Source: a virus (Duplodnaviria; Caudoviricetes). Taken from it: a stretch of DNA of 64,000 nucleotides. The stretch lies in IMG/VR virus record IMGVR_UViG_3300025129_000005. One strand, 5' to 3'. Positions 47,474-64,000 of this stretch are shown here, one piece after another. The translations under genes and the position numbers were made by a program. The notes under the pieces were generated by a model. That model did no database searches. It saw nothing but the letters and a program-made list of their open reading frames with translations, and was not told the origin of the DNA. The stretch's first letter is position 1; every line of letters starts with the position of its first letter.

Positions 47474-47506
47474 ATGTGGTATTAAATATCATATATGGAG
47501 GAATAT

Positions 47507-47956
47507 ATGCCAGAAGGAACAGTTTCAGATGAAACATCTCATTATGTGAGGAATAAAGATCTCATACCTGAGATTAAGGAATTTAATAAATCAGGCAGAA
47601 TATCAGAAGAATTAGGAAGAATGTTACTTTTGATAGCTAAAAATCTTTCCAATAAAGGTAATTTTATAAACTATACTTGGAAGGATGATATGATACAAGA
47701 AGCGGTATTAACCTGTTGTAAATATTTAAAGAACTTTGATTTAGAAGTATCAAACAATCCGTTTGCTTATATTACAACAATTTGTAGTCACGCATTTGTG
47801 AACTACATTAATAAACAAAAAAGACACAGTGATATAAAGGATACATTGTTTCATAATCGTATGGACATGGATGATGAATCATCCTCTTATAGATATAAGG
47901 CAATTGATTACACTGTAATGTCGGATGATATAAAGAAGAAAAAGAATTCCAAGTGA
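47507..47956 (+). CDS. gp55: Late-transcription sigma factor (T4 gp55 family)
   Basis: HYV.NK.L, LIA.NLS.K.NF.NYTWKDDMI.EA...C.KYL.NFD....NPFAYIT.IC..AF motifs. SD ggagg favours ATG 47507. Confidence 0.92.
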   Translation: MPEGTVSDETSHYVRNKDLIPEIKEFNKSGRISEELGRMLLLIAKNLSNKGNFINYTWKDDMIQEAVLTCCKYLKNFDLEVSNNPFAYITTICSHAFVNYINKQKRHSDIKDTLFHNRMDMDDESSSYRYKAIDYTVMSDDIKKKKNSK

Positions 47957-52429: not shown

Positions 52430-52437
52430 TATAAATA
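52430..52437 (+). promoter_or_regulatory. Late promoter TATAAATA heading the radical SAM island
   Basis: Exact consensus in the intergenic gap; a second variant GTAAATA at 52456-52462. Confidence 0.65.
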
Positions 52438-52485
52438 CATTTATGGTATTATTTTGTAAATAAAGAATCGGGAGATATTTAAGTT

Positions 52486-53610
52486 TTGAAGTCATTAACA
52501 GTTGAATATGTTATAACAGAACAATGCAATCTTAATTGTGAATATTGCTATATGAAAAATAGTAATACATATATGGATCTCGAAGGAACCCTTCATTTTA
52601 TCGAAAATGTCCATAAATTAATGGAAGTATATGGTAGTGATAAATACAATATATCATATTTTGGCGGAGAGCCTTTAATGAATTGGGGGTTGATTGAAAA
52701 GTCAGCCCCTTTATTCAAACAAGACCCTAGATGTGAACATCAGATAATAATAAGCAACGGTCTTCTTCTTGATGAAAATAAAATAAATTTCATAAAAGAA
52801 AATGAGATTGGATTTTCTTTCTCCTTTGATGGATTGTGGCAGAATAAAAATCGTCCACATGTATCACACGAGGATGTGTTTTCATTATATATGAAAAAAA
52901 TTCCCCTTGTAAAAAAACTTGTCGGTAATGGTGGGGGTAAAGTTATGGTATCCCCTAGTAATATTGATACAATGACAGAAAATTTTGAATTTTTTGTAAA
53001 CGAAATTGGAGCTTATTTTCCAGATTTCAGTCTAGTTCGAGATGATATTTGGAGTGAGGATGATGTAAAAAGGTTCAAGGTTGAGAGCCGGAGACTTGCT
53101 GATAGAATTGTAAAATATTACGAAGACGGTAAGGCGGTTTTTGTTGGGTTTTTTGGATTACATCTCATCGATTCTATATTAGGTTATAATAAAGGTAAAA
53201 GACCTTTTGGGTGTTTTGCGGGATGTTCTGGTGTTGGTTATATGCCAGACAAACAATTTTATTTATGTGCCAGATACGGATCAGGTGATTCTGATAAAAG
53301 TGGTCTTATAATGGATGTTAATGGTAATTTAAATCATGATTTGATTAATAAATATTTAGATCCAAATATTCATAACCCTAAATGTTACGAGGAATGCAAG
53401 GCATGTGATCTGTATAAATTTTGTAATGCTGGTTGTACTTATTCACAGACACGTGAAGATGAACAAGGTAATATAACAGCAAAACCAGTAAAAAATGTAT
53501 GTGAATTATATCATATTATACAAGATGATGTATTTTATTTACACGATAAATTAAAAGATAATAAGTTATATATTGATTGTATGGTGAATCGTTATGGTAA
53601 ATACTTTTAA
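52486..53610 (+). CDS. Radical SAM enzyme with SPASM domain
   Basis: CNLNCEYC; FGGEPL; SPASM C(FAG)C...GYMPD...YLC and C.AC.LY.FC.AGC...C. Confidence 0.93.
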   Translation: MKSLTVEYVITEQCNLNCEYCYMKNSNTYMDLEGTLHFIENVHKLMEVYGSDKYNISYFGGEPLMNWGLIEKSAPLFKQDPRCEHQIIISNGLLLDENKINFIKENEIGFSFSFDGLWQNKNRPHVSHEDVFSLYMKKIPLVKKLVGNGGGKVMVSPSNIDTMTENFEFFVNEIGAYFPDFSLVRDDIWSEDDVKRFKVESRRLADRIVKYYEDGKAVFVGFFGLHLIDSILGYNKGKRPFGCFAGCSGVGYMPDKQFYLCARYGSGDSDKSGLIMDVNGNLNHDLINKYLDPNIHNPKCYEECKACDLYKFCNAGCTYSQTREDEQGNITAKPVKNVCELYHIIQDDVFYLHDKLKDNKLYIDCMVNRYGKYF

Positions 53611-53622
53611 GGAGAAAATGCA

Positions 53623-53979
53623 ATGAGTGTAAAAAATATGTCAGAAGTTGTTAGAAAAATGATGGATATTGTTAATTTAATGGAAGAATGCCCTAGTACT
53701 CCCGAAAAGGATGCTATTGTAAACTCCATGCTTAAATTATCATCCATGGTATTGAATAATTTGATGAATGGAAAATCGCCGATGAAGAATGATGGGAAGT
53801 GTGATAATCCTGATTGTAAGTGTGGTGGCAAAAACAATCAAGACGGTAATGGGTGTAATGGTCATACAAGTCAAGGTGGTAATCTTAGGTCTAATAATAT
53901 ATTACCTTCTGTTGATTTAAATTCTACGATAGAGAAAATAAGAGAAGAAATTAAAAATAGTAAAAATGAAAAAGACTAA
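53623..53979 (+). CDS. Small protein with Cys/His patch (CDNPDCKC...CNGH)
   Basis: SD aggag; between two radical SAM genes; shares CNGH with the N-terminus of the Cys-rich protein. Confidence 0.6.
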   Translation: MSVKNMSEVVRKMMDIVNLMEECPSTPEKDAIVNSMLKLSSMVLNNLMNGKSPMKNDGKCDNPDCKCGGKNNQDGNGCNGHTSQGGNLRSNNILPSVDLNSTIEKIREEIKNSKNEKD

Positions 53980-54787
53980 TATTATATATTTGACGACAAG
54001 ATGTAACCTTGGATGTGAGTATTGTTACGAGTCAAGAAAAAATCAGATACAGAGTGATGTCACGAAGGATCAAATTGATGAGTTTATATCTGAGATAGAA
54101 GTTCGTGAATCAGAATACAATCAACACACGGTTGTTATTATGGGTGGTGAGCCAACTATAGTTCCCGATATGGTTGAGTATATAGCAGAAAAAATGATTT
54201 CTTCTAAAAAAACATTTAATGTTCATATGAACACTAACGGTATATTATTGGATAATGATGACTACAGGAATAAATTTTATGACTTGATTGAAAGATCTTC
54301 TGATAATGGTGTTAGTTGGCTAGTTTTGGTTAGTTATGATTGGAAAAATAACAACAAGAGGAAATTTAAAAGCGGTGAAACGTCTACTCATATAGTGGAG
54401 AGTACTTTACGTAAACTTAGTAATGAGGATAGACAGTTCGGTATATCATGCACTGTTTCATATGATAACTGTGAAGAACTTATGGACTATAGCATTAATA
54501 TATTAGAAAGATATAAAATTGTTAGATTGGTTTTTTCTTGGAATTACCAGAATATATCGAATCATATAGGACCTGGTTATATAAAACAGTTACAAGAGTA
54601 TTATGATCCGTATATGGCTGAATTACAAAGAATGTACGATGTTAATATCTGTGGTTTTAATGGAAAAACGTGTTTTGAATGTGGAAATTGTGCAGGAATA
54701 GATTATGATGGTAATTTATATTTAAGCCCAACAAAGGGTATATTGATAGAACCATCTACAACTTTCAAAGAGTTTGATAGATTTTAG
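53966..54787 (+). CDS. Radical SAM enzyme (short, partial SPASM/twitch-like C-terminus)
   Basis: CNLGCEYC; MGGEPT; TNG; C-terminal C....TC..CG.C.GID.DGNLY. Confidence 0.9.
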   Translation: MKKTNIIYLTTRCNLGCEYCYESRKNQIQSDVTKDQIDEFISEIEVRESEYNQHTVVIMGGEPTIVPDMVEYIAEKMISSKKTFNVHMNTNGILLDNDDYRNKFYDLIERSSDNGVSWLVLVSYDWKNNNKRKFKSGETSTHIVESTLRKLSNEDRQFGISCTVSYDNCEELMDYSINILERYKIVRLVFSWNYQNISNHIGPGYIKQLQEYYDPYMAELQRMYDVNICGFNGKTCFECGNCAGIDYDGNLYLSPTKGILIEPSTTFKEFDRF

Positions 54788-54805
54788 GAACAATAAGGAT
54801 TATGG

Positions 54806-55900
54806 ATGAGAATATTTCATATAGATATAAATTCGACAAGACAATGTAATTTAAGATGTAAGTATTGCTATGAGGCTAATAATAGTCTTATGGAGAATGA
54901 GTCATATAAAGATCCTGAAAACTTCATCAAGTTCTGTAAAGATTTCATGGAGTCCGATTTCTTTAAGAGTAATTATGATGCAATTAAAGTAAATTTTTGG
55001 GGCGGAGAGCCTTCACTTAACAAAGAATTATTTAACCATTTAATGGATGAGTTCTTAGAAGATAATAGAGTTATCTTTTTTATGTTTTCTAATGGATTTT
55101 ATATAGATGATTATTACATAAATTTATTTAAAATGTTACAGAAGATAAAAATTAATAGCGAACCTAAATTTGTCATGCAGGTCAGTTATGATGGTGAAAT
55201 TATTCATGACATAGATAGGGTTGATGTTAAGGGTAAAGGTTCTTCTGAGAAGGTTAGACAAACTCTACAGAAGCTTATTGATAACAATATATATTATGTT
55301 ATGAAAAGTACTATATCCCCTAAAAACTTTAAACACTTGTATGAAGCATATCTTGATGTAAGTAAATTTTTACCCCAAGGACGTAGCTACTTTCCGACGA
55401 TAGATTTGCATCTTTCTTATGAGGAAGGTGATGATAGTTATAAACAACATGGTCAAGATTTATATGAGCAATTGATAAAAATATCATCATACCAAAAACA
55501 AAACGGATTGGATAATTTTGTGTTTTTCTTTCCCAATAAAGCATTGTGTGCTGCCGGTGTTAGTATGATAGCAGTGGATATTAATGGTAATATATTACCA
55601 TGTCATGGGGCTTTATATACCAATTATGATGAACATCTTATTGGTAATGTTTCGGACGAGGATGCTATTGATAAAGTTATAAATAGTTCAAATTGGTTTA
55701 AAGACTTCTATACAAACGTTCCAGAAGAATGTAAAGGATGTACAAATAAGTTTTGTTTGAAGTGTAATGTTGTGAAGTATGAGCATAGTGAGAAAGATAA
55801 ATATGAGGAAAAATGGACTGATCATACCTGTCAACCTTATCAATGTTATTTTTTTGATATAATAGATTTGGTTAGTAGGGCACATAGAATGGTTAGTTAA
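54806..55900 (+). CDS. Radical SAM enzyme with SPASM domain
   Basis: CNLRCKYC; FWGGEPS; CAAG.SMIAVDINGNILPCH and CKGC.NKFC..C...C..YQC. Confidence 0.93.
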   Translation: MRIFHIDINSTRQCNLRCKYCYEANNSLMENESYKDPENFIKFCKDFMESDFFKSNYDAIKVNFWGGEPSLNKELFNHLMDEFLEDNRVIFFMFSNGFYIDDYYINLFKMLQKIKINSEPKFVMQVSYDGEIIHDIDRVDVKGKGSSEKVRQTLQKLIDNNIYYVMKSTISPKNFKHLYEAYLDVSKFLPQGRSYFPTIDLHLSYEEGDDSYKQHGQDLYEQLIKISSYQKQNGLDNFVFFFPNKALCAAGVSMIAVDINGNILPCHGALYTNYDEHLIGNVSDEDAIDKVINSSNWFKDFYTNVPEECKGCTNKFCLKCNVVKYEHSEKDKYEEKWTDHTCQPYQCYFFDIIDLVSRAHRMVS

Positions 55901-55911
55901 GGAATTTAATT

Positions 55912-57006
55912 ATGGCATGTAATGGGCATGTAAGTAGTACGGGTTGTCATGGTCATACCCTAACGGGGTGTGTAGGTCACATTAACTCATGTGGTGGTCA
56001 TTCTGGATATTATCCATCAAGGGCTGTTGCATTTACTAATAATGTAGCGGATTCTGGTGATATCATAGACTATGAGAATGAACTTAATGAATTAAGAGAT
56101 GAACTGAATTATGAGGCGTCTAGGAGAGGATTAACTAATCTATTAATTCCCGTATTTGATCAACCAGTGGATGCACTTGAAATAAGAACCATGAGAGATA
56201 CTTATGTGAGTATAACAGGGAACTGTGCAGATACCCCTATAAGTGATGCAGACATTGTAACAGGTGAACTAATACGTCCAATTACAGTAGAATCCATGTT
56301 AGAAGGATTTATCGATTGGGCATCTAATTGTACGTGTAACTGTAACTACTCTTGTACGTGTAACTGTAACTACTCTTGTACGTGTAACTGTAACTACTCT
56401 TGTACGTGTAACTGTAACTATTGTGCATGTGATTGTGATTATTGTACATGTCAGTGTGCTTATGCTTGTACTTGTGATTGTAATTATGCTTGTACATGTG
56501 AGTGTAACTATTGTGCATGTGATTGTAATTATGTTTGTACTTGTGATTGTAATTATGCTTGTACATGTCAGTGTGATAATGAGTGTAATTGTGATTGTAA
56601 TTATGCTTGTACATGTCAGTGTGATTATGCTTGTACCTGCGATTGTAATCATGACTGTATTTGCGATTGTAATCATGCTTCATGTAGTTGTGATTATGCT
56701 TGTACCTGCGATTGTAATCATGACTGTATTTGCGATTGTAATCATGACTGTATTTGCGATTGTAATCATGACTGTATTTGCGATTGTAATCATGCCTGTA
56801 TTTGCGATTGTAATCATGCCTGTATTTGCGATTGTAATCATGCCTGTATTTGCGATTGTAATCATGCCTGTATTTGCGATTGTAATCATGCCTGTATTTG
56901 CGATTGTGCTTATGCTTGTACTTGTGATTGTAATCATGCCTGTATTTGTGATTGTTATTATGTAACATCGTATGTTCCTAGTGGATGTTATAGTCACAAA
57001 AATTAA
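55912..57006 (+). CDS. Cys-rich repeat protein, putative radical SAM substrate / RiPP-like precursor
   Basis: Four N-terminal CxGH motifs, a roughly 110-aa helical-looking domain, then about 27 CxCxCxxx units (about 80 Cys by hand count). Confidence 0.8.
   Translation: MACNGHVSSTGCHGHTLTGCVGHINSCGGHSGYYPSRAVAFTNNVADSGDIIDYENELNELRDELNYEASRRGLTNLLIPVFDQPVDALEIRTMRDTYVSITGNCADTPISDADIVTGELIRPITVESMLEGFIDWASNCTCNCNYSCTCNCNYSCTCNCNYSCTCNCNYCACDCDYCTCQCAYACTCDCNYACTCECNYCACDCNYVCTCDCNYACTCQCDNECNCDCNYACTCQCDYACTCDCNHDCICDCNHASCSCDYACTCDCNHDCICDCNHDCICDCNHDCICDCNHACICDCNHACICDCNHACICDCNHACICDCNHACICDCAYACTCDCNHACICDCYYVTSYVPSGCYSHKN
56329..56961 (+). repeat. In-frame 24-bp (occasionally 21-bp) tandem repeat array encoding CxCxCxxx
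   Basis: tgtacgtgtaactgtaactactct x3 at the 5' end; tgtatttgcgattgtaatcatgcc x5 exact at 56773-56892; related variants between. Confidence 0.97.
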
Positions 57007-57020
57007 TAGGAGGTTAAAAA

Positions 57021-57605
57021 ATGTTGGCTGTTAAGATATTTCCTTTAGATGAAAAGAAAGCTAGAATAACAGGTTCTGGTGATATACCAGAAGGGAGCAG
57101 TGATCCTACAGTGTATATAGGTGTTTCAGATGAAGTGTATAAATTTGTATGTGATAACATCGAAGAACATATATTAATCTGTCCTAGAAACGTGGAAGAA
57201 TTGAAAGTGGATATGATAGAGGTTAAGGCTGCCAATATTCTAATAGAGTTAAAACATACAGCTGTAAAGGCATACAAAAATTTCCATTTGGGTAGAGTTA
57301 TGGATCCAGAATTTCTCATTACATTTATAGATTATACCATGTTGAATAATAAATTTTGTTCACATGGGTTTTTTATAACACAGGATAATAAAGAAGAGAT
57401 GTATCTTGACATACTGAATACCGGTGATATGTCACTTATAGAATCATTGGAGCGATACCTTAATGTTTCTGATAAAATATGTGAGTATTGGTGCCATACG
57501 GATAATTTAATTAAATTCAAAGAAGAAATTTATAATGCCGAAAGTAGGGAAGAATTGGAAGAGATATATAAAAGGTATTGTTACGGTCAAAGTTTCATTA
57601 AGTAA
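57021..57605 (+). CDS. Hypothetical 194-aa protein, possible accessory factor of the radical SAM system
   Basis: SD aggagg; directly after the Cys-rich gene; no family recognised. Confidence 0.55.
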   Translation: MLAVKIFPLDEKKARITGSGDIPEGSSDPTVYIGVSDEVYKFVCDNIEEHILICPRNVEELKVDMIEVKAANILIELKHTAVKAYKNFHLGRVMDPEFLITFIDYTMLNNKFCSHGFFITQDNKEEMYLDILNTGDMSLIESLERYLNVSDKICEYWCHTDNLIKFKEEIYNAESREELEEIYKRYCYGQSFIK

Positions 57606-57609
57606 TTAA

Positions 57610-58476
57610 ATGTTTAGCGATAAAAACATTATATTATTCGGTTTGGTATTAGATGCCGAATCTAACATTACTCCAATGGGGTCATTATATGACGCATTGG
57701 AGTATTTTATGTTTATATATAAGCATAACAAAGATGTACATCTCATCTTTAATATAATTAAGATTAATCGGTATGTTAAGGATGTAAAAATAGAAAGTAT
57801 AAAGAATGAAATAGTAAAAATAATCAATGGTAAATATGACATAAGCGATTACTCATTTATGGGTAATGTTCATGTTCTGAATTTAAAAGACTTGTTCTTT
57901 AAAAATAAACCAAATATAGTCATGACTGTTGATCTTACGATGCCTTTCGGCTTTAAAAATTTTATGTGTAGAGCTAAAGAAGTCATAATAATACCTGAAT
58001 ATACGACCAGTATGTATTACTATAAATCAAAAAAGAATAAGGTTACCTATTTTACTGAAATGTCATTTTGTTATTCAGATGTCCCTTATAAAATGAAGAT
58101 TGATTTTGAATCGCATAAGAAGATAGATAAGTTTGATAATAAATTATATGTTAATTATCCAAAGTATGATGCTAAAAATAGACCAGAAGTGTTAGATTTT
58201 GCCTGTGATATAGGCAAAGAATTGTTGATTAAAGAAGATCGATATTTCTATGATCTTCATGAAAGGTTTGATGAATATGTTTATTTTCAATCGGATAGAT
58301 GGTTTGATCCTCACCCAAGATTATTTCATGAATGTAAATTATACAATAAACCCTATCACTATAAGAGTATTGGTGTAAAGGATGGATCTTATTATCGATA
58401 TAAAGATAGTCTGGCCGAGAATCTTAGTGACCGACAACTGACAAAGGATGATATTATTGTTAAAATGATGTCTTAA
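57610..58476 (+). CDS. Hypothetical protein, possibly glycosyltransferase(GT-B)-like
   Basis: C-terminal FDEYVY....FDPHPRLFHEC.LY.KP loosely resembles the GT-B E...EA...G.P motif; weak. Confidence 0.35.
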   Translation: MFSDKNIILFGLVLDAESNITPMGSLYDALEYFMFIYKHNKDVHLIFNIIKINRYVKDVKIESIKNEIVKIINGKYDISDYSFMGNVHVLNLKDLFFKNKPNIVMTVDLTMPFGFKNFMCRAKEVIIIPEYTTSMYYYKSKKNKVTYFTEMSFCYSDVPYKMKIDFESHKKIDKFDNKLYVNYPKYDAKNRPEVLDFACDIGKELLIKEDRYFYDLHERFDEYVYFQSDRWFDPHPRLFHECKLYNKPYHYKSIGVKDGSYYRYKDSLAENLSDRQLTKDDIIVKMMS

Positions 58477-58497
58477 TTAATAATTTGTGAGGTACCT

Positions 58498-59610
58498 ATG
58501 AAGGTTTTTTCTGAGAATGAGTGGAGTCCCCTGAAAGAAGTTATTGTTGGTTCTGCTTTTTCTGATTACGTTTTTGATGTCGACCTATCTTTTAAGTTGT
58601 TTTTTCGTGATAATTATTCTTGGGGAGCCAGAAAAGGATCCCCAGAAAGAATTGTAATAAAAAAGAAATATGTAGATGAATTACAAGAAGATGTTGAATG
58701 TTTTTCCGAAACACTCACAGACTTAGGTATTAATGTACACAGACCAAATGATATAAAAAAGGTCGTTAGGGTTAAAACTCCTCATTGGTCAACAGAAATA
58801 ATTCCAGCACTGAATGTTCGTGATCAGACCGTTATACTCGGTGATACTATTCTTGAAACATCACCATGTGTGAGGAATAGATATTTTGAAAACGACCTCA
58901 TGAAAGACATTTTTTATGAGGGTTTTCTTGATGGGGCTAATTGGATGGTGATGCCTAGACCTATCATGACCGATAACAGTTTTGACAGGAACCTTTTAGA
59001 TCACAAGTCAAAGTTGAACTCAATACCAGACAAACCGTTCGATCATAGCGATTTGTTCCTAAACCCAAACGATATCATACCTGATGCTAATGACCTGAAA
59101 ATACATGAAATGATGATTGATGGCGCTCAACTGGTACGTTTTGGGAAAGATATCATAATCAATATTTCCAACAAAAATCATTACTTGGGGTACCTGTGGA
59201 TTAAAAGACAATTCCCTCAGTATAATTACCATCCAGTTTATTCGCTGTGTGATAACCATTTGGATACACTGATAGTTCCTCTATGCGAAGGTGTTTTGTT
59301 GTTAAGGTCTAAGAAGTTTGAAGAATTCCTACCCCCATTTCTAAAAGATTGGAAGATCATATATCCACCTGAGATAAGAAGTGATATGTTCCCTAAATAT
59401 GATTCAACCGACCTTATATTAACATCACCATATATTGACATGAACATATTATCGGTTGATGGTAATAAGATAATTGTAAATGAGTTGTTCCCTGAACTAT
59501 CTGAACTGTTGTATAGTGAGGGGTTTGATCCCATTCCAGTGCGACACAGACATAGGAAGATATTTGCTGGTGGATTCCACTGTTTCACATTGGATCTGTT
59601 GAGAGGTTAG
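58498..59610 (+). CDS. Amidinotransferase (glycine / inosamine-phosphate amidinotransferase family, StrB1-like)
   Basis: NEW.PLKEVIVG, RD....G..I.E.P....RYFE, DGAQ, HLD, MN.LS.D and GGFHC.TLD catalytic motifs (Asp/His/Cys). Confidence 0.93.
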   Translation: MKVFSENEWSPLKEVIVGSAFSDYVFDVDLSFKLFFRDNYSWGARKGSPERIVIKKKYVDELQEDVECFSETLTDLGINVHRPNDIKKVVRVKTPHWSTEIIPALNVRDQTVILGDTILETSPCVRNRYFENDLMKDIFYEGFLDGANWMVMPRPIMTDNSFDRNLLDHKSKLNSIPDKPFDHSDLFLNPNDIIPDANDLKIHEMMIDGAQLVRFGKDIIINISNKNHYLGYLWIKRQFPQYNYHPVYSLCDNHLDTLIVPLCEGVLLLRSKKFEEFLPPFLKDWKIIYPPEIRSDMFPKYDSTDLILTSPYIDMNILSVDGNKIIVNELFPELSELLYSEGFDPIPVRHRHRKIFAGGFHCFTLDLLRG

Positions 59611-60366
59611 ATGGAAGTACAAGGAAAAAGGGTGATGTTTGGGCCACCAAGAGGATATACATCTTCTATATGGGATTATTTTAAGGTTCTTCCCGATTAT
59701 CATACTCACAAAACCAAAGAGTTTGACAGGGATACGATTCATGCCATGTCTGACGAAGATGCTTACAAAGAGTATTTACAAGGATATGATGGTTCGAAGC
59801 CATTTATAGATTGTTGTTTGTTGTATTATAACAACCATGCCAACTTATCGTTTATTAAGGATTTGTTATTTACCGATCTGGACTGCTCTGTGTATAATGT
59901 CAGGTCATACAAAGCCGCCGTAAAATCTTATTATCTAATGGTTATGAGAACCATGAATAAATTTTATATGGTCGATGATTTTGAATACTACGACCAAGCA
60001 GGTAAAGATAGGTTGTTTGATTTTGCATATAACCGATTCTCTGTTGAATGGCATCTAAACTATATTAAAAATACCTGTAGGTATAAAGGTGATGTATATT
60101 TCGTGCAAGGTGTTGATATACATGAAGTGATGAACACCTTTAATATGAGAATACCGAATTATGGATTACAGAAACTTAATTCGACAGCATCACATCTTGT
60201 GATTAAACCAAGACTCAAGTATATGCTTGAAAGGTTTAGAGAGTTCGAGCGGTACTGGTCAGACAATATAGAAAAATGTCATGCTGTTAGGGAGAACAAC
60301 ATTAAGATACTGAAAGAATCAAGATTCATAGGGAAATTTGACGAGGATTTATATAGACGTGAATAA
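59611..60366 (+). CDS. Sulfotransferase-like protein
   Basis: GPPRGYTSSIWDYF..LPD.....KEF resembles the G.PK.GT.SL..YL..HP.....KE..F PAPS-binding loop; divergent. Confidence 0.5.
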   Translation: MEVQGKRVMFGPPRGYTSSIWDYFKVLPDYHTHKTKEFDRDTIHAMSDEDAYKEYLQGYDGSKPFIDCCLLYYNNHANLSFIKDLLFTDLDCSVYNVRSYKAAVKSYYLMVMRTMNKFYMVDDFEYYDQAGKDRLFDFAYNRFSVEWHLNYIKNTCRYKGDVYFVQGVDIHEVMNTFNMRIPNYGLQKLNSTASHLVIKPRLKYMLERFREFERYWSDNIEKCHAVRENNIKILKESRFIGKFDEDLYRRE

Positions 60367-61339
60367 CAACCAAAAAATAAATCGAAAGTATTTAGAGCCT
60401 TTAATGAACTGGTGTCAAGAACATCCTTTAAGTGAGTTTGGTGTCATATATGATAATGAGAGATACTTTGCTGATTATCTTGGCGTTAAGACATTCAAGT
60501 TTGTGAATTCTGGCACATCAGCATTAGATTTGATAATGAAGAGAATATCTATCGATAGACCTAAACCTCTGATCTATGGACCCTCATTCTGTCATGTATC
60601 ATGGATCAATGTTTGTGAATGGAATGACTTTGAATATTATTTTGTTGATGTTAAGGAAGATACCCTATCTATTGATCCCGTAAAATTGAAGGAGATGATC
60701 GTAGAAAAAGGAGTTCCTGATATCGTTGTTATGGTTGATATGGGTGGTTACGTTGGCGATGATACGTTGACTGTGAGGGAGATATGCGACTCTCATGGTA
60801 TAATTTTGGTTGAAGATGCCGCGAATGCCTTCGGTCAACAGTATAAGGGTTATAAGGCTGGAACTATTGGTGATTTCTCATTCTTCTCATTTTCCAATCC
60901 CAAACTTCTGACGTGTGGTGAGGGGGGTGCTATTGTATGTAATGGTGACGACTTTAATGATTCTTTTGAGGAAATGATTTATCAGGGTGGATGGTATAAA
61001 TACGGAAAGTCCAGACGAACAAATGGTCTAAATTATATTATGTCTAACTGGATGACTCAGTTATTAAGATATCAATTAGATGACATAGAGACGATCCAGA
61101 AAGAACGTCATGACCAGTTTTTAGTATATTCGGATAAATTTAATTTATTTAGATATGATTCTGATAATAAATATTATTCGCCAAGTTATTACTGCTACAG
61201 ACAGAAAGGTGTATCAAAAAGGATATTCGAGCGTATGACTAAATTGGAAATGTATAGGTATAAAAACCATGATCCTGAGTGTAAAGTGGGTCAGTTGTTA
61301 GAAGATGAACTTGTATACCTTTATATGGAGTATAAATGA
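60338..61339 (+). CDS. DegT/DnrJ/EryC1/StrS-family PLP aminotransferase
   Basis: NSGTSAL, VD....T..IDP, LVEDAA.AFG..Y.G.KAGT.GD....SF...KLLTCGEGG. Start may be GTG 60359. Confidence 0.93.
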   Translation: MTRIYIDVNNNQKINRKYLEPLMNWCQEHPLSEFGVIYDNERYFADYLGVKTFKFVNSGTSALDLIMKRISIDRPKPLIYGPSFCHVSWINVCEWNDFEYYFVDVKEDTLSIDPVKLKEMIVEKGVPDIVVMVDMGGYVGDDTLTVREICDSHGIILVEDAANAFGQQYKGYKAGTIGDFSFFSFSNPKLLTCGEGGAIVCNGDDFNDSFEEMIYQGGWYKYGKSRRTNGLNYIMSNWMTQLLRYQLDDIETIQKERHDQFLVYSDKFNLFRYDSDNKYYSPSYYCYRQKGVSKRIFERMTKLEMYRYKNHDPECKVGQLLEDELVYLYMEYK

Positions 61340-62643
61340 AACTATTGTTTATTGACCTTCCGTTTCTTGATATGAAGAATAATGACCTTAATTTAGGGCT
61401 AAGGTATTTGTTGGGGTATTTAGACCAGAATGATATTGCCTATGACCTGCTTGACTTTAAAGGTACTGATTATTTAGAGAAGTATCGAAAGATCGTATAT
61501 TTCACTTCCACGAAAGCATATCAAAGTTACCGTGAAGATATTGAAAGACGAGAAAGTTTCAAACAAACGGTACATGAATTTATACCATATATCCAAACGT
61601 TTGATGTTGTAGCATTCAGTATCTTCTTTGAATTGAACAAGGTACATTTTGATGAAATGTATGAGACATTAAAACCACATTTAAAACCTAATCAAAAAGT
61701 GGTTATCGGTGGAAATTATCTACGACATTATGACCATCACCTTCAATTCAAAGACTTTGATGGTGATGTCGTTGTTGGACCGGGGGAGCCTTATTTCCAA
61801 AAAATGTTTGGTTTACCTGATTTTGATTTGTATTCATACAATCATTCACCTTGCACCAATCCTTACGCTGTTCCGATAATAGGATCCCATGGATGTGTCA
61901 ATAAATGTGTATTTTGTACACATAGAAGAATAGATATGTGGCACCGTAAGCCAGAGTACATTGTTAAAGAGATTGCTCATTTTTACACGAAATACCATAA
62001 AACTCGTTTTACTATAAAAATGGATAATATGTTAAATGATTACGAAAAACATAACGATTTGATGGAGAAGTTGTCCTTGTTAAACAGGACTATTTTAAGA
62101 TCAAAACTTAAATGGTCAACCAGTTTTTCTTTGTCGAGATATAAAGATTTTGTCGAAAAAGTTGATATCAATAAAATAAGAGAAGCTGGATGCGATACGT
62201 TACTTATAGGGGTGGAAAGCTATAATGAAAATGTCAGAAAATCGTTAAATAAGCCTAGATTTGATATGGATGATATAGAAAATTTTTATAAGTTATTTAG
62301 AGATAATGGGATCAAAGTTTGTCAGAATCTAATGATCGGATATATATCAGAAACTGATGATGATTTTGATAAAAGTGTTGAGATGACTAAGTATATTATG
62401 GATAGATACAGTGATGTTGTCGTTTATACGGACATTTGGACCTACATAATTAACAGCGAGTACAACTATAGAGGGTACGAAAAGGAATTGTATTTTAGAG
62501 AAGACGGTCATTGGGTGTATAGGGATAACACTCACGAAAAACGTATGCATCGTAAAGATGTAATGTTATCCTTGATGTCTAATTACGGTGAAAAACATTG
62601 TATGATAGTAGGACAAGACAATTCAGGAATTATTATGGTATAA
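61336..62643 (+). CDS. Cobalamin-binding radical SAM enzyme (class B methyltransferase-like)
   Basis: N-terminal B12 domain (LG..YL.GYL, VVIGG, V.GPGE); SHGC.NKC.FC; R.PE.IV.EI; IGVES. Confidence 0.88.
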   Translation: MKLLFIDLPFLDMKNNDLNLGLRYLLGYLDQNDIAYDLLDFKGTDYLEKYRKIVYFTSTKAYQSYREDIERRESFKQTVHEFIPYIQTFDVVAFSIFFELNKVHFDEMYETLKPHLKPNQKVVIGGNYLRHYDHHLQFKDFDGDVVVGPGEPYFQKMFGLPDFDLYSYNHSPCTNPYAVPIIGSHGCVNKCVFCTHRRIDMWHRKPEYIVKEIAHFYTKYHKTRFTIKMDNMLNDYEKHNDLMEKLSLLNRTILRSKLKWSTSFSLSRYKDFVEKVDINKIREAGCDTLLIGVESYNENVRKSLNKPRFDMDDIENFYKLFRDNGIKVCQNLMIGYISETDDDFDKSVEMTKYIMDRYSDVVVYTDIWTYIINSEYNYRGYEKELYFREDGHWVYRDNTHEKRMHRKDVMLSLMSNYGEKHCMIVGQDNSGIIMV

Positions 62644-62654
62644 AGAGGAGTAAC

Positions 62655-63779
62655 ATGTTATATTACAATCCGTTTGCAATGAAGAAAATTTTACATAAAA
62701 ATGATTATGAATATGATCTGTTTTATTTGAATAGGGCGGCTGCACCAAAGTTCGATAGGACGGGGTTATTCACCAAATTTGATATAAGTGAGAAATATAA
62801 TTTTCAATCTATATTCAGAATGCCAGATTTTTCAACCCCCTACAACAAAAACTTCGAGGAAACGGCTATGAATACGGCCAAGAAAATTGTTGAATCGGAA
62901 GAACAATTTAACTTATTTTGGTCAGGTGGTTTGGACTCAACAACAGTTTTGATATGTCTTCATCAATGGCGTGATATTATTAAGGATAAAATTAAGATTA
63001 TTATGACCAATGCTTCTATATACGATAATAATTATGCATACAATGAGATAATTAAACATAATTATGATCATGTTGTGTGTGATGATTTTGGTGGGGCTTT
63101 GGATTATTATTCATTAGAGTTTATGAATGTAACAGGGGATGCCAGTGAATCTATATACGGATGGTCTGGAGTTTTACAGAACTTTACGAGAGAGTTAGGG
63201 GTTGATGGGTTATATATAAAACTTAAGGATATTCCTAAACTCAGAAATAGAATAAGCATTGATAATTATGCAACATTCGAATATTATTTGAAATTGTATG
63301 AACTGATCAAGGTGACCCTACCAGCATGTCCTATAGATATAGTTGATGTTCAGGATTTGAATTGGTGGTTCGTGTTTAATTTCTGTTATCAATATGATGT
63401 GTTGAGGTTTATGGTACCACATCTTAAAAATTATAAGAAGTGCTGGGATAACATGAATGCCTTTTTTGCAAACGAGGAATGGCAATTATGGATATATAAT
63501 ACATATGAATCAACCATGAAAGGTTGTACTGACTTTAATTATTTTAAGAAGGATGAAATTAATTTTATCCATAAGTATTATCCAAAGATTGATATATCTG
63601 CTACTTATCCGCGAAAGACCAATGTGCATCTTAAATATTTAGCGCCAATAAATTTCTTAATGATAGATGATGATTATAACCTTATTGATTGCCCTGATTA
63701 TTTGAAGACAACAAAAAAGGAATTATTATGGAATTATAAGAACAAACCCATGGAAGAAGTTCAGATGTTGTTTGACTAA
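62655..63779 (+). CDS. PP-loop adenylating enzyme (asparagine-synthetase C-terminal-like)
   Basis: LFWSGGLDST PP-loop; VTGDASE. SD gaggag favours ATG 62655. Confidence 0.75.
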   Translation: MLYYNPFAMKKILHKNDYEYDLFYLNRAAAPKFDRTGLFTKFDISEKYNFQSIFRMPDFSTPYNKNFEETAMNTAKKIVESEEQFNLFWSGGLDSTTVLICLHQWRDIIKDKIKIIMTNASIYDNNYAYNEIIKHNYDHVVCDDFGGALDYYSLEFMNVTGDASESIYGWSGVLQNFTRELGVDGLYIKLKDIPKLRNRISIDNYATFEYYLKLYELIKVTLPACPIDIVDVQDLNWWFVFNFCYQYDVLRFMVPHLKNYKKCWDNMNAFFANEEWQLWIYNTYESTMKGCTDFNYFKKDEINFIHKYYPKIDISATYPRKTNVHLKYLAPINFLMIDDDYNLIDCPDYLKTTKKELLWNYKNKPMEEVQMLFD

Positions 63780-64000
63780 TGAGAACTACTACGCTTGTAT
63801 TGACAACTGATTGTGATTGGGATTGTAGTTATTGTAACGTCACAAAGTTCGGTAAATATGTTACCAGTAAAGAGAAAATTGATCGCCACCTTCCCTATAT
63901 TATGGAGTTGATAGGAGACTATAACTTCGTTTTAGCGGGGGGTGAGATTGGTCTGGTAGATCCTGATATCATTTCTAATCTGATGGTATCCATAGGAAAG
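63779..64000 (+). CDS. Radical SAM enzyme, 3'-truncated (absent from the ORF track)
   Basis: TAATG overlap; translates MRTTTLVLTTDCDWDCSYCNV...LAGGEIG, with CxxxCxxC and GGE motifs; open to the window end. Confidence 0.85.
   Translation, partial: MRTTTLVLTTDCDWDCSYCNVTKFGKYVTSKEKIDRHLPYIMELIGDYNFVLAGGEIGLVDPDIISNLMVSIGK

Follow-up and report, generated by a model that had tools for sequence, protein, structure and literature searches.

The DNA analyzed here, a stretch of 64,000 nucleotides (nt) referred to as the window, comes from a 141.9-kb viral contig of IMG/VR (CheckV completeness estimate 55%). The phage is a myovirus that has T4-type genes for the portal, terminase, sheath, tape measure, and baseplate. 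Between positions 52430 and 57605 it carries a cassette in which three genes for radical S-adenosylmethionine (SAM) enzymes, rSAM1 to rSAM3, precede the gene for a protein with a long array of Cys repeats. The initial annotation, made by a model from the sequence alone, described six co-oriented genes with short gaps or overlaps, among them a small Cys/His protein and a 194-residue protein, and proposed the Cys-repeat protein as the substrate of the three enzymes. The open reading frames (ORFs) agree with this description: six lie on the same strand from 52486 to 57605, spaced by 11-19 nt or overlapping by 14 nt. The exact late-promoter-like octamer that it placed upstream is also present. The features of the cassette, with protein lengths in amino acids (aa), are as follows.

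52430..52437, + strand: TATAAATA, T4-type late-promoter-like octamer, exact match, within the 83-nt gap preceding rSAM1
52486..53610, + strand: rSAM1, radical SAM/SPASM enzyme, 374 aa, TTG start; PF04055 at 40.7 bits; two auxiliary clusters predicted
53623..53979, + strand: small ORF, 118 aa, 5 Cys and 1 His; helical ends around a Gly/Asn/Cys-rich linker with CNGH
53966..54787, + strand: rSAM2, short radical SAM enzyme, 273 aa; PF04055 at 53.4 bits; one auxiliary-cluster motif, CX6CX2CX2C
54806..55900, + strand: rSAM3, radical SAM/SPASM enzyme, 364 aa; PF04055 at 32.7 bits and PF13186 (SPASM), both above cut-off; directly upstream of the Cys-repeat gene in most related loci
55912..57006, + strand: Cys-repeat protein, 364 aa, 86 Cys
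57021..57605, + strand: 194-aa cassette partner, phrog_25260; homolog after the Cys-repeat gene or S74 piece in nearly all related loci

Three radical SAM enzymes of the maturase type

All three enzymes exceed the Pfam cut-off for PF04055 (29.5 bits), and the Cys residues of the CX3CX2C radical SAM motif are invariant in each of the ortholog alignments (11-14 orthologs per enzyme). In rSAM1 (14 orthologs) the invariant residues are C14/C18/C21 together with the SPASM residues C243, C261, C304, C307, C313, C317, and C339; in rSAM3 they are C14/C18/C21 together with C248, C266, C309, C312, C317, C320, and C347. Judged by these residues, rSAM1 and rSAM3 are full seven-Cys SPASM enzymes with two predicted auxiliary [4Fe-4S] clusters each. 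By the same measure rSAM2 (11 orthologs), with C13/C17/C20 and C229/C236/C239/C242, is not a full SPASM enzyme, and its four extra Cys suffice for one auxiliary cluster. The annotated set of two complete SPASM enzymes and a shortened one is thus borne out by the alignments.

The best NCBIfam model for all three enzymes is the ranthipeptide maturase PapB (NF047865), with 114.7, 61.7, and 103.3 bits for rSAM1 to rSAM3; the cut-off is 340 bits, and none of the three is a member. Nif11-type, QhpD, HxsB, SCIFF, CXXX-repeat, and anaerobic sulfatase maturase (anSME) models rank next at 40-79 bits. For rSAM1 the second-best model is a Nif11-type maturase and the third is QhpD (TIGR03906), aligned over nearly the full length at 75 bits against a cut-off of 453. 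The SCIFF, CXXX-repeat, QhpD, Nif11, and CefB equivalogs give 42-79 bits against cut-offs of 350-600, and no curated NCBIfam family cut-off is reached by any of the three enzymes. Identities outside peptide maturation were rejected: anSME (65-70 bits, cut-off 349), NrdG (NrdG2 at 38.8 bits, cut-off 131), MoaA (~43 bits, cut-offs 231-325), and QueE, for which a weak QueE-like PHROG match appears in rSAM2 only (E = 2e-8). The closest solved structure is 5WGG/5WHY, which we take to be the SCIFF thioether synthase CteB (profile E = 2.9e-22 for rSAM3 and 3e-15 for rSAM1). Together these results uphold the annotated class, a SPASM peptide maturase type distinct from NrdG, QueE, and anSME.

The alignments to 5WGG start at chain residue 101 (rSAM3) or 103 (rSAM1), past its N-terminal peptide-recognition domain, and the phage enzymes begin 13 residues ahead of the radical SAM motif. 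This indicates that they lack the recognition element (RRE) of maturases for peptides that are made by the ribosome and altered after translation (RiPPs). The initial annotation had suggested a search for an RRE; no PqqD-like RRE is present in the three enzymes, and the small ORFs have no Pfam match, a fold-level RRE search of the small ORF not having been made. From sequence, the three enzymes are peptide/protein-maturase-type radical SAM proteins without an RRE, whose nearest relatives are thioether-forming maturases.

Orthologs occur in Campylobacter phages of the CP220 type. rSAM1 is 37.5% identical to CP220 gp023, and rSAM3 orthologs in CP220-type and environmental phages show 33-56% identity; between the radical SAM proteins of the window phage and those of the CP220-type phages identity is only 33-38%. 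In some phages the rSAM3 ortholog is split into two or three ORFs (L021:8089-9141; CP21 genes CP21_110/111). CP220-type phages were reported in 2010 to carry 11-12 radical SAM genes with an unexplained role (PMC2853527), in agreement with the initial annotation, which spoke of many such genes, and marine T4-like genomes with 12 such genes were described in 2017 (PMC5332604).

The Cys-repeat protein and its relatives in tail-fiber modules

The candidate substrate has four parts, each listed with the evidence that defines it.

55912..56010, + strand: N-terminal MACNGH and three further CxxH motifs, residues 1-33 (sequence comparison)
56011..56328, + strand: three-helix 'xNELRxAIxxExxRR' domain, residues ~34-139 (AlphaFold2, pLDDT 80-94)
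56329..56964, + strand: array with 27 units of seven or eight residues, C-[TIA]-C-[DNQ]-C-[ND]-[YH]-(x) (Tandem Repeats Finder and unit parsing)
56965..57006, + strand: C-terminal tail of 13 aa and stop, without the SDxRLK/S74 tag (sequence, compared with relatives)

The N-terminal domain had been annotated as folded-looking, and AlphaFold2 indeed places helices at residues 54-71, 88-102, and 123-137; the model has no Foldseek match in PDB or BFVD at E ≤ 0.001. The array is disordered in the monomer model (pLDDT <50). Cys makes up 24% of the protein. At 56328-56962 Tandem Repeats Finder detects 27.0 copies of a 24-nt period (83% matches), and unit parsing gives 26 units plus one degenerate unit, with 7- and 8-residue units mixed, in line with the ~27 units first noted. 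Some blocks of units are identical at the nucleotide level (three copies of CTCNCNYS, five of CICDCNHA), which indicates that part of the array expanded recently. Identical blocks cannot be counted in short-read contigs, so the exact unit number is beyond their reach. Logan contigs from four independent runs end inside the array, and exact unitigs, also from four independent runs, span 56391-56718, with depth increasing ~4-5 fold across the identical blocks. A long array thus does exist, though its exact unit count is not verifiable. That the ORF is an artifact within a repeat is ruled out by the homologous N-terminal domains and the independent unitigs. A 98%-identical, 198-aa version from another assembly (P0011) has 6 units against ~27 here, and may be either a real allele, unit number varying between close phages, or a collapsed assembly. 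Equal numbers of CxxH and CxCxC repeats in one protein were considered and rejected (4 vs. 25, 2 vs. 9, and 7 vs. 18).

An exhaustive phmmer search of cluster representatives (50% identity clusters) returned 355 at E ≤ 1e-3, including 86 at E ≤ 1e-10, and matches to the N-terminal domain within the family reach E = 1.7e-26. At least three CxCxC[ND][YFH] units are present in 123 of 152 sequences examined (the 150 best phmmer matches, the window protein, and one match from an earlier search). Typical relatives have 3-18 units, and the window protein, with 25-27, has the maximum seen; the "giant" repeat protein of the initial annotation is thus long in the window but an outlier in its family. By sequence the protein is a member of a CxCxC(N/D)Y family, defined by the three-helix NELR domain and at least three units and in part equivalent to phrog_26958. 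Optional CxxH motifs, the three-helix domain, and a C-terminal array make up the common layout of what are, from their sequences and gene contexts, widespread tail-fiber-module proteins. Neither a megablast of the cluster nor a tblastn of the whole Cys-repeat protein found a match in the phage collection, probably owing to the low-complexity filter. A search of viral contigs for loci with the N-terminal 140 aa as a single sequence also found nothing; the family alignment did retrieve loci.

The C-termini of the relatives point to fibers. Many stop 12 residues after the Ser of a conserved SDxRLKxxIxY[FLM] sequence, and others run on for 66-90 residues. These long tails match the chaperone Peptidase_S74 (PF13884) of endosialidases and tail fibers over model positions 1-51 (23.6-24.3 bits, cut-off 22). 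In the 12-residue class, the fiber gene retains only that SDxRLKxxIxY[FLM] strand, and the remainder is encoded by the next ORF (84-95 aa), which matches model positions 16-57 at 22.2-34.3 bits. Such split arrangements, unlike the known form, are frequent (L010:10001-10905; L008:2122-3318; L007:690-2302; L025:9866-10841); the second ORF starts 10-23 nt after the fiber gene, in varying frames. To our knowledge, no trans-acting split of S74 has been described. S74 domains are typical of trimeric tail spikes and fibers. In the relatives the cleavage Ser directly follows the last CNY, so that the array forms the C-terminal, distal end of the mature protein. The search thus defines a large unannotated family of metagenomic phage proteins (355 clusters) together with a split form of the S74 chaperone.

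The genes surrounding the family agree with this assignment. At loci without radical SAM genes, the Cys-repeat gene sits between large collagen-like tail-fiber genes and a gene for a protein with a fiber-tip/S74 C-terminus. CP220 encodes a family member, gp140 (534 aa, phrog_26958), with seven CTCDCNY units and with the rSAM3 ortholog gp136 2.2 kb downstream; the rSAM1 ortholog gp023 lies elsewhere in that genome. Compared with the window protein, gp140 differs in its N-terminal half, carries an additional C-terminal region with Cys, and is not adjacent to a radical SAM gene; the alignment is confined to the repeat and the junction preceding it. Its counterpart in phage IBB_35, gene 3-9, of equal length and position, is among 38 virion proteins identified by electrospray ionization tandem mass spectrometry, with 2.6% coverage (PMC3322345). 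With S74 in relatives, tail-fiber neighbors, and a CP220-type homolog in the virion proteome, the Cys-repeat protein looks like a component of a virion fiber module rather than a secreted peptide, as the initial annotation had supposed.

This context bears on two further explanations of the protein. One is a genuine RiPP precursor with multiple cores, in which the helical domain would act as a long Nif11/NHLP-like leader and the repeats, once modified, would be cut out or released as small Cys-rich peptides against hosts or competitors. The conserved N-terminal domain followed by a hypervariable C-terminus with a variable number of repeats does resemble a leader and core, and the Nif11-type model ranks second for rSAM1. 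However, S74 autocleavage chaperones mark trimeric fibers and spikes and cut after the array, not before it; the genes lie inside tail-fiber modules, and a homolog is listed in a virion proteome. Moreover, the candidate is a 364-aa protein with a folded domain instead of a short leader/core precursor, and no protease, exporter/transporter, or immunity gene was found in the cassette by Pfam, NCBIfam, and PHROG scans or in the locus survey. A released peptide product is thus very improbable. The high Cys content and the many radical SAM enzymes encoded in the genome would also suit a metallothionein-like protein, or a reservoir or scaffold of metal or Fe-S from which the Fe-S enzymes of the phage would be supplied with iron and sulfide, or that would buffer these, and radical-SAM-rich marine T4-like phages carry Fe-S assembly genes as well (PMC5332604). 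Yet an S74 chaperone and a tail-fiber context would be unexpected for a cytoplasmic store, family members also occur on contigs without radical SAM genes, and the strictly conserved Asn-Tyr of each unit is not metallothionein-like. Such a store is the least probable of the explanations considered here.

Cys-repeat genes also occur in tandem, as paralogs in groups of two to four (L043:9810-12374; L070:9501-11558; L008:1153-3021; L012:9413-10561). In the four-gene array of L043, each gene has exactly four units and the N-terminal parts all differ.

Pairing of the enzymes with Cys-repeat proteins and putative stapling

The association between enzymes and repeat proteins was surveyed from both sides. 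On the substrate side, radical SAM genes flank 21 of the 26 viral loci that the family alignment of the Cys-repeat protein retrieved. Every MACxGH-type gene has an rSAM3 ortholog at most 35 nt upstream, and so, just upstream and where the contig permits, do all four homologs found by the N-terminal domain. In L006/L010 the order is rSAM1, small ORF, rSAM3, Cys-repeat gene, S74 piece, a 199-aa and a 299-aa protein, and, further along, DegT and another radical SAM gene; L008 has two tandem Cys-repeat genes. On the enzyme side, ~41 of 46 loci with rSAM3 orthologs (E ≤ 1e-29) have a family member within 6 kb. It lies immediately downstream in ~20, many of these having degenerate repeats that a strict pattern misses, and 2.4-3.7 kb downstream on the same strand in a second group of 21; five loci, one of them at a contig end, have none. 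Homologous clusters therefore mostly keep the Cys-repeat gene, in accord with the initial annotation.

The second group forms a clade with another gene order: rSAM3, rSAM1, small ORF, rSAM2, small ORF, with one to four tandem Cys-repeat genes at the end. Most of the Cys-repeat proteins of this clade have no Cys besides the 12 of their four repeat units, so that the repeats would be the sole target there if the enzymes act on Cys. The tblastn match of the rSAM3 profile in this clade is often ~250-400 nt longer than the ~1,090-nt gene; the extra span extends past the rSAM3 stop into the adjoining rSAM1-like gene, and an insertion is not shown by it.

As a control, 34 loci with only distant SPASM radical SAM genes were inspected; a CxCxC[ND]Y protein is present in none, and three have other Cys-repeat proteins beside the radical SAM gene. 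One of these (L090:4542-5984, radical SAM gene from 6001) encodes a 481-aa protein with 88 Cys and a CxxCDxD array preceded by three copies of a 'HIxELRxAxN' helix module, and shares the three-helix domain of the window protein (hhalign 98.2%, E = 5e-14). The combination of a phage SPASM radical SAM enzyme and a Cys-repeat protein with this helical domain thus appears, by profile comparison, to exist in several lineages. Other Cys-repeat proteins of this kind, next to distant SPASM genes, have CSCNATCYGY-type repeats (L091:5402-5956; L082:496-891). The two loci L059 and L061 differ in that L059 keeps the radical SAM gene and has neither the Cys-repeat gene nor the 194-aa-type gene, a natural "enzyme without substrate"; in L061 these two genes sit between the rSAM3 ortholog and a gp55-like gene.

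By gene content the cassette is conserved in a broad clade of radical-SAM-rich T4-like myoviruses and comprises three enzymes, two of them SPASM and one with a single auxiliary cluster, as well as a small helical ORF and the partners of 194 and 288 aa. The recurring pairing of enzyme and Cys-repeat protein in dozens of distant phages suggests that a phage structural protein is probably modified in the manner of a RiPP natural product. The analysis establishes the gene anatomy, the enzyme class, the missing RRE, the conservation of synteny, the fiber and S74 context of the relatives, and the proteomic listing of a distant homolog. Beyond this, we infer that the Cys-repeat protein is the target of the three enzymes, that the reaction would form thioethers, and that the product would be a trimer made late in infection. 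In this reading, to which we give a probability of roughly 0.5, the Cys-repeat protein would be a radical-SAM-modified, probably thioether-stapled, trimeric fiber protein. The observation behind the initial annotation is confirmed, and its interpretation is partly supported. A more detailed form of the proposal, in which RiPP-type maturases act on a virus structural protein, three dedicated RRE-less SPASM/twitch enzymes produce, in the cytoplasm, a thioether-stapled fiber end of up to ~80 Cys, and the helical domain is the recognition module, is offered tentatively, as the odds are somewhat against it.

The setting of the modification would be the reducing, probably anoxic, host cytoplasm. Near-identical DNA is present in 20 aquifer metagenome runs and one hot-spring sample, a source that fits oxygen-sensitive radical SAM chemistry; none of the RNA runs among the sequencing runs searched contains the window sequence. 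H atoms would be abstracted from residues within or beside the repeats by 5'-deoxyadenosyl radicals that the three enzymes generate from SAM, and the Cys sulfurs would be joined to those carbons as thioethers, as in CteB, PapB, and QhpD. The array could thereby become a covalently stapled rod or tip with no need for oxidative disulfide formation, giving the trimeric fiber a redox-independent, protease-resistant distal end. The product would assemble into the virion as a trimer, late in infection; in the relatives, folding would be aided by S74, followed by cleavage after the last CNY. As there is no RRE, recognition would need the helical domain of the substrate or the small ORF following rSAM1.

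Characterized systems share parts of this scheme. CteB and PapB have the same radical SAM core and seven-Cys SPASM domain as rSAM1 and rSAM3 and act on Cys-rich substrates with Asp/Asn/Thr partners. In contrast, the phage enzymes stay at 62-115 bits against the PapB cut-off of 340 and have no N-terminal RRE; the substrates of CteB and PapB are ~45 aa long, whereas the family described here consists of folded proteins of 150-530 aa with up to 27 units and a fiber chaperone; and here three different radical SAM enzymes, encoded by lytic phages, share one candidate substrate. QhpD is a SPASM enzyme that staples a protein subunit, QhpC, rather than a secreted peptide, by Cys-to-Asp/Glu thioethers. 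In QhpC, a small subunit of an enzyme, there are three crosslinks, in contrast to a repeat array in a virion-module protein. The CXXX-repeat (TIGR04115) and CefB (NF038107) systems likewise pair a SPASM maturase with a substrate of regularly spaced Cys. The phage enzymes fall below their cut-offs (65-69 bits vs. 350 and 42-49 vs. 600, respectively), and the substrates there are bacterial peptides with CxxxC or every-fifth spacing, unlike the CxCxC found here.

Several observations weigh against stapling. Five loci (L017, L018, L019, L022, and L031) lie on contigs with no radical SAM gene anywhere, although completeness of these contigs is just 7-33%; a neighboring maturase is thus probably not required for the repeat to occur. 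The repeat motif is identical with and without radical SAM genes, which weakens the case for Asn, Asp, or Tyr as acceptor residues. These phages carry about ten radical SAM genes with sugar-pathway genes nearby, and some of the adjacency could reflect a general "radical SAM island." The support from virion proteomics comes from a distant homolog at 2.6% coverage. The window protein itself ends VTSYVPSGCYSHKN; it has no S74 match and no S74 ORF, so that neither part of the chaperone is present. The mixture of 7- and 8-residue periods within single proteins argues against a strict gp5-type triple β-helix. A complex prediction of rSAM3 with the 198-aa P0011 scored 0.00, which is no answer and evidence for neither side.

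Alternatively, the Cys of the array could stay unmodified and form a metal-binding or disulfide ladder within a trimeric fiber, with the enzymes serving a sugar/aminoglycoside-like pathway or another protein. Family members occur on contigs of 13-60 kb without any radical SAM gene, carrying the same motif as the linked members, and the N-terminal CxxH motifs resemble metal ligands; genes for glycosyltransferase (GT)-like, amidinotransferase-like, DegT, B12-type radical SAM, and PP-loop proteins lie directly downstream and could form such a pathway. Metal-stabilized fiber needles include the HxH-Fe sites of T4 gp37, which are well established, and the spike apex of P2 gpV and phi92 gp138. The T4 gp37 iron sites offer an analog, and these needles resemble the present protein in that the distal end of a trimeric fiber bears a short ligand motif in repeated form. 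The present system differs in using Cys instead of His and in its association with radical SAM genes. Against an unmodified ladder, the rSAM3 ortholog is an immediate neighbor (gaps of 1-35 nt) across a 33-56% identity range and in two gene orders, the enzymes are of the SPASM peptide/protein-maturase type and not of the sugar/cofactor type, distant SPASM enzymes are paired with other Cys-repeat proteins, and the contigs without radical SAM genes are largely incomplete. Such a ladder is, on balance, rather unlikely, though less so than a released peptide or a metal store.

Searches of a literature library for SPASM/ranthipeptide systems in phages and for CxCxC repeats found no description of this pairing. 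The initial annotation knew of no characterized CxCxC-repeat radical SAM system in a T4-like phage; the link to radical SAM genes is indeed unreported, but the motif itself was already present in CP220 gp140. The importance of the cassette lies in three radical SAM families tied to one conserved candidate substrate in a tail-fiber module, with a homolog in cultured phages. Were the protein stapled as proposed, this would be the first case of a virion protein modified in a RiPP-like manner; enzymology of the RiPP type would then reach beyond peptides to virion proteins, and phage particles would have a new covalent stabilization beside the HK97-type isopeptide chainmail. It would also account for part of the long-unexplained radical SAM richness of CP220-type Campylobacter phages and some environmental T4-like phages, and would yield maturases that work independently of an RRE on a repeat scaffold that is simple and tunable.

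Partner genes, late-promoter-like elements and flanking genes

The small ORF between rSAM1 and rSAM2 has no Pfam, NCBIfam, or PHROG match. A small ORF of 69-177 aa follows the rSAM1 ortholog in 10 of 11 loci examined, several of these being weakly similar to each other; in L021 another radical-SAM-like ORF intervenes. In four loci (the window; L012:6827-7255; L013:6576-7058; L021:6888-7169) the variable linker of the small ORF, flanked by conserved helical ends, contains C[NH]GH, which is also the N-terminal motif of the candidate substrate (MACxGH). The small ORF could serve for docking or as a decoy, or be another substrate. The small ORF P0005 shows no similarity to the small ORF that precedes the Cys-repeat genes of the second clade. 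The 194-aa partner is modeled with confidence (pLDDT 90.4) as a β domain with helical hairpins; neither PDB nor the AFDB clusters gave a clear match to its fold, an uncharacterized protein ranking first in AFDB (E = 2.5e-4), and DUF4376 and "phage tail protein" are weak leads (E ~0.1-0.4).

The octamer TATAAATA at 52430-52437 is located after an upstream gene of 1474 codons. The initial annotation placed the cassette directly after the last fiber gene; the 1474-aa gene is directly upstream, but its identity as a fiber gene has weak leads only. Over the window the octamer occurs 16 times against 13.2 expected and is not enriched, and a scan for sigma-70 promoters and terminators gave chance-level results. 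A second exact copy (55678-55685) lies inside rSAM3, 234 nt 5' of the start codon of the Cys-repeat gene, and, going by its position, could be a late promoter that lets the substrate exceed the enzymes. Two flanking genes are relevant to the expression and the content of the cassette.

47495..47956, + strand: gp55-like late sigma factor; tblastn-type match (E = 7.9e-43, 50% identity) to the gp55-like ORF of L061
57610..58476, + strand: 288-aa neighbor, phrog_14526; in most cassettes; GT-like fold, a lead only

The gp55-like label of the L061 ORF was itself assigned from sequence reading and position. With the predicted TATAAATA promoter and this gp55-like sigma factor, late expression of the cassette is plausible. 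For the 288-aa neighbor, an Atlas structure search retrieved GT-family clusters (TM 0.60-0.61). From 57610 to 64000 the order is glycosyltransferase-like, amidinotransferase-like (C-terminal GGFHC), and DegT/StrS aminotransferase genes, followed by genes for an N-terminally extended radical SAM protein of 435 aa, a PP-loop protein (SGGLDS), and another radical SAM enzyme. The last 616 bases of the window (63385-64000) encode the start of a further radical SAM gene (63779 onward). The product of this downstream pathway could be a sugar placed on the fiber. A similar trio in a cyanophage has been labeled "antibiotic synthesis genes" (PMC12801897).

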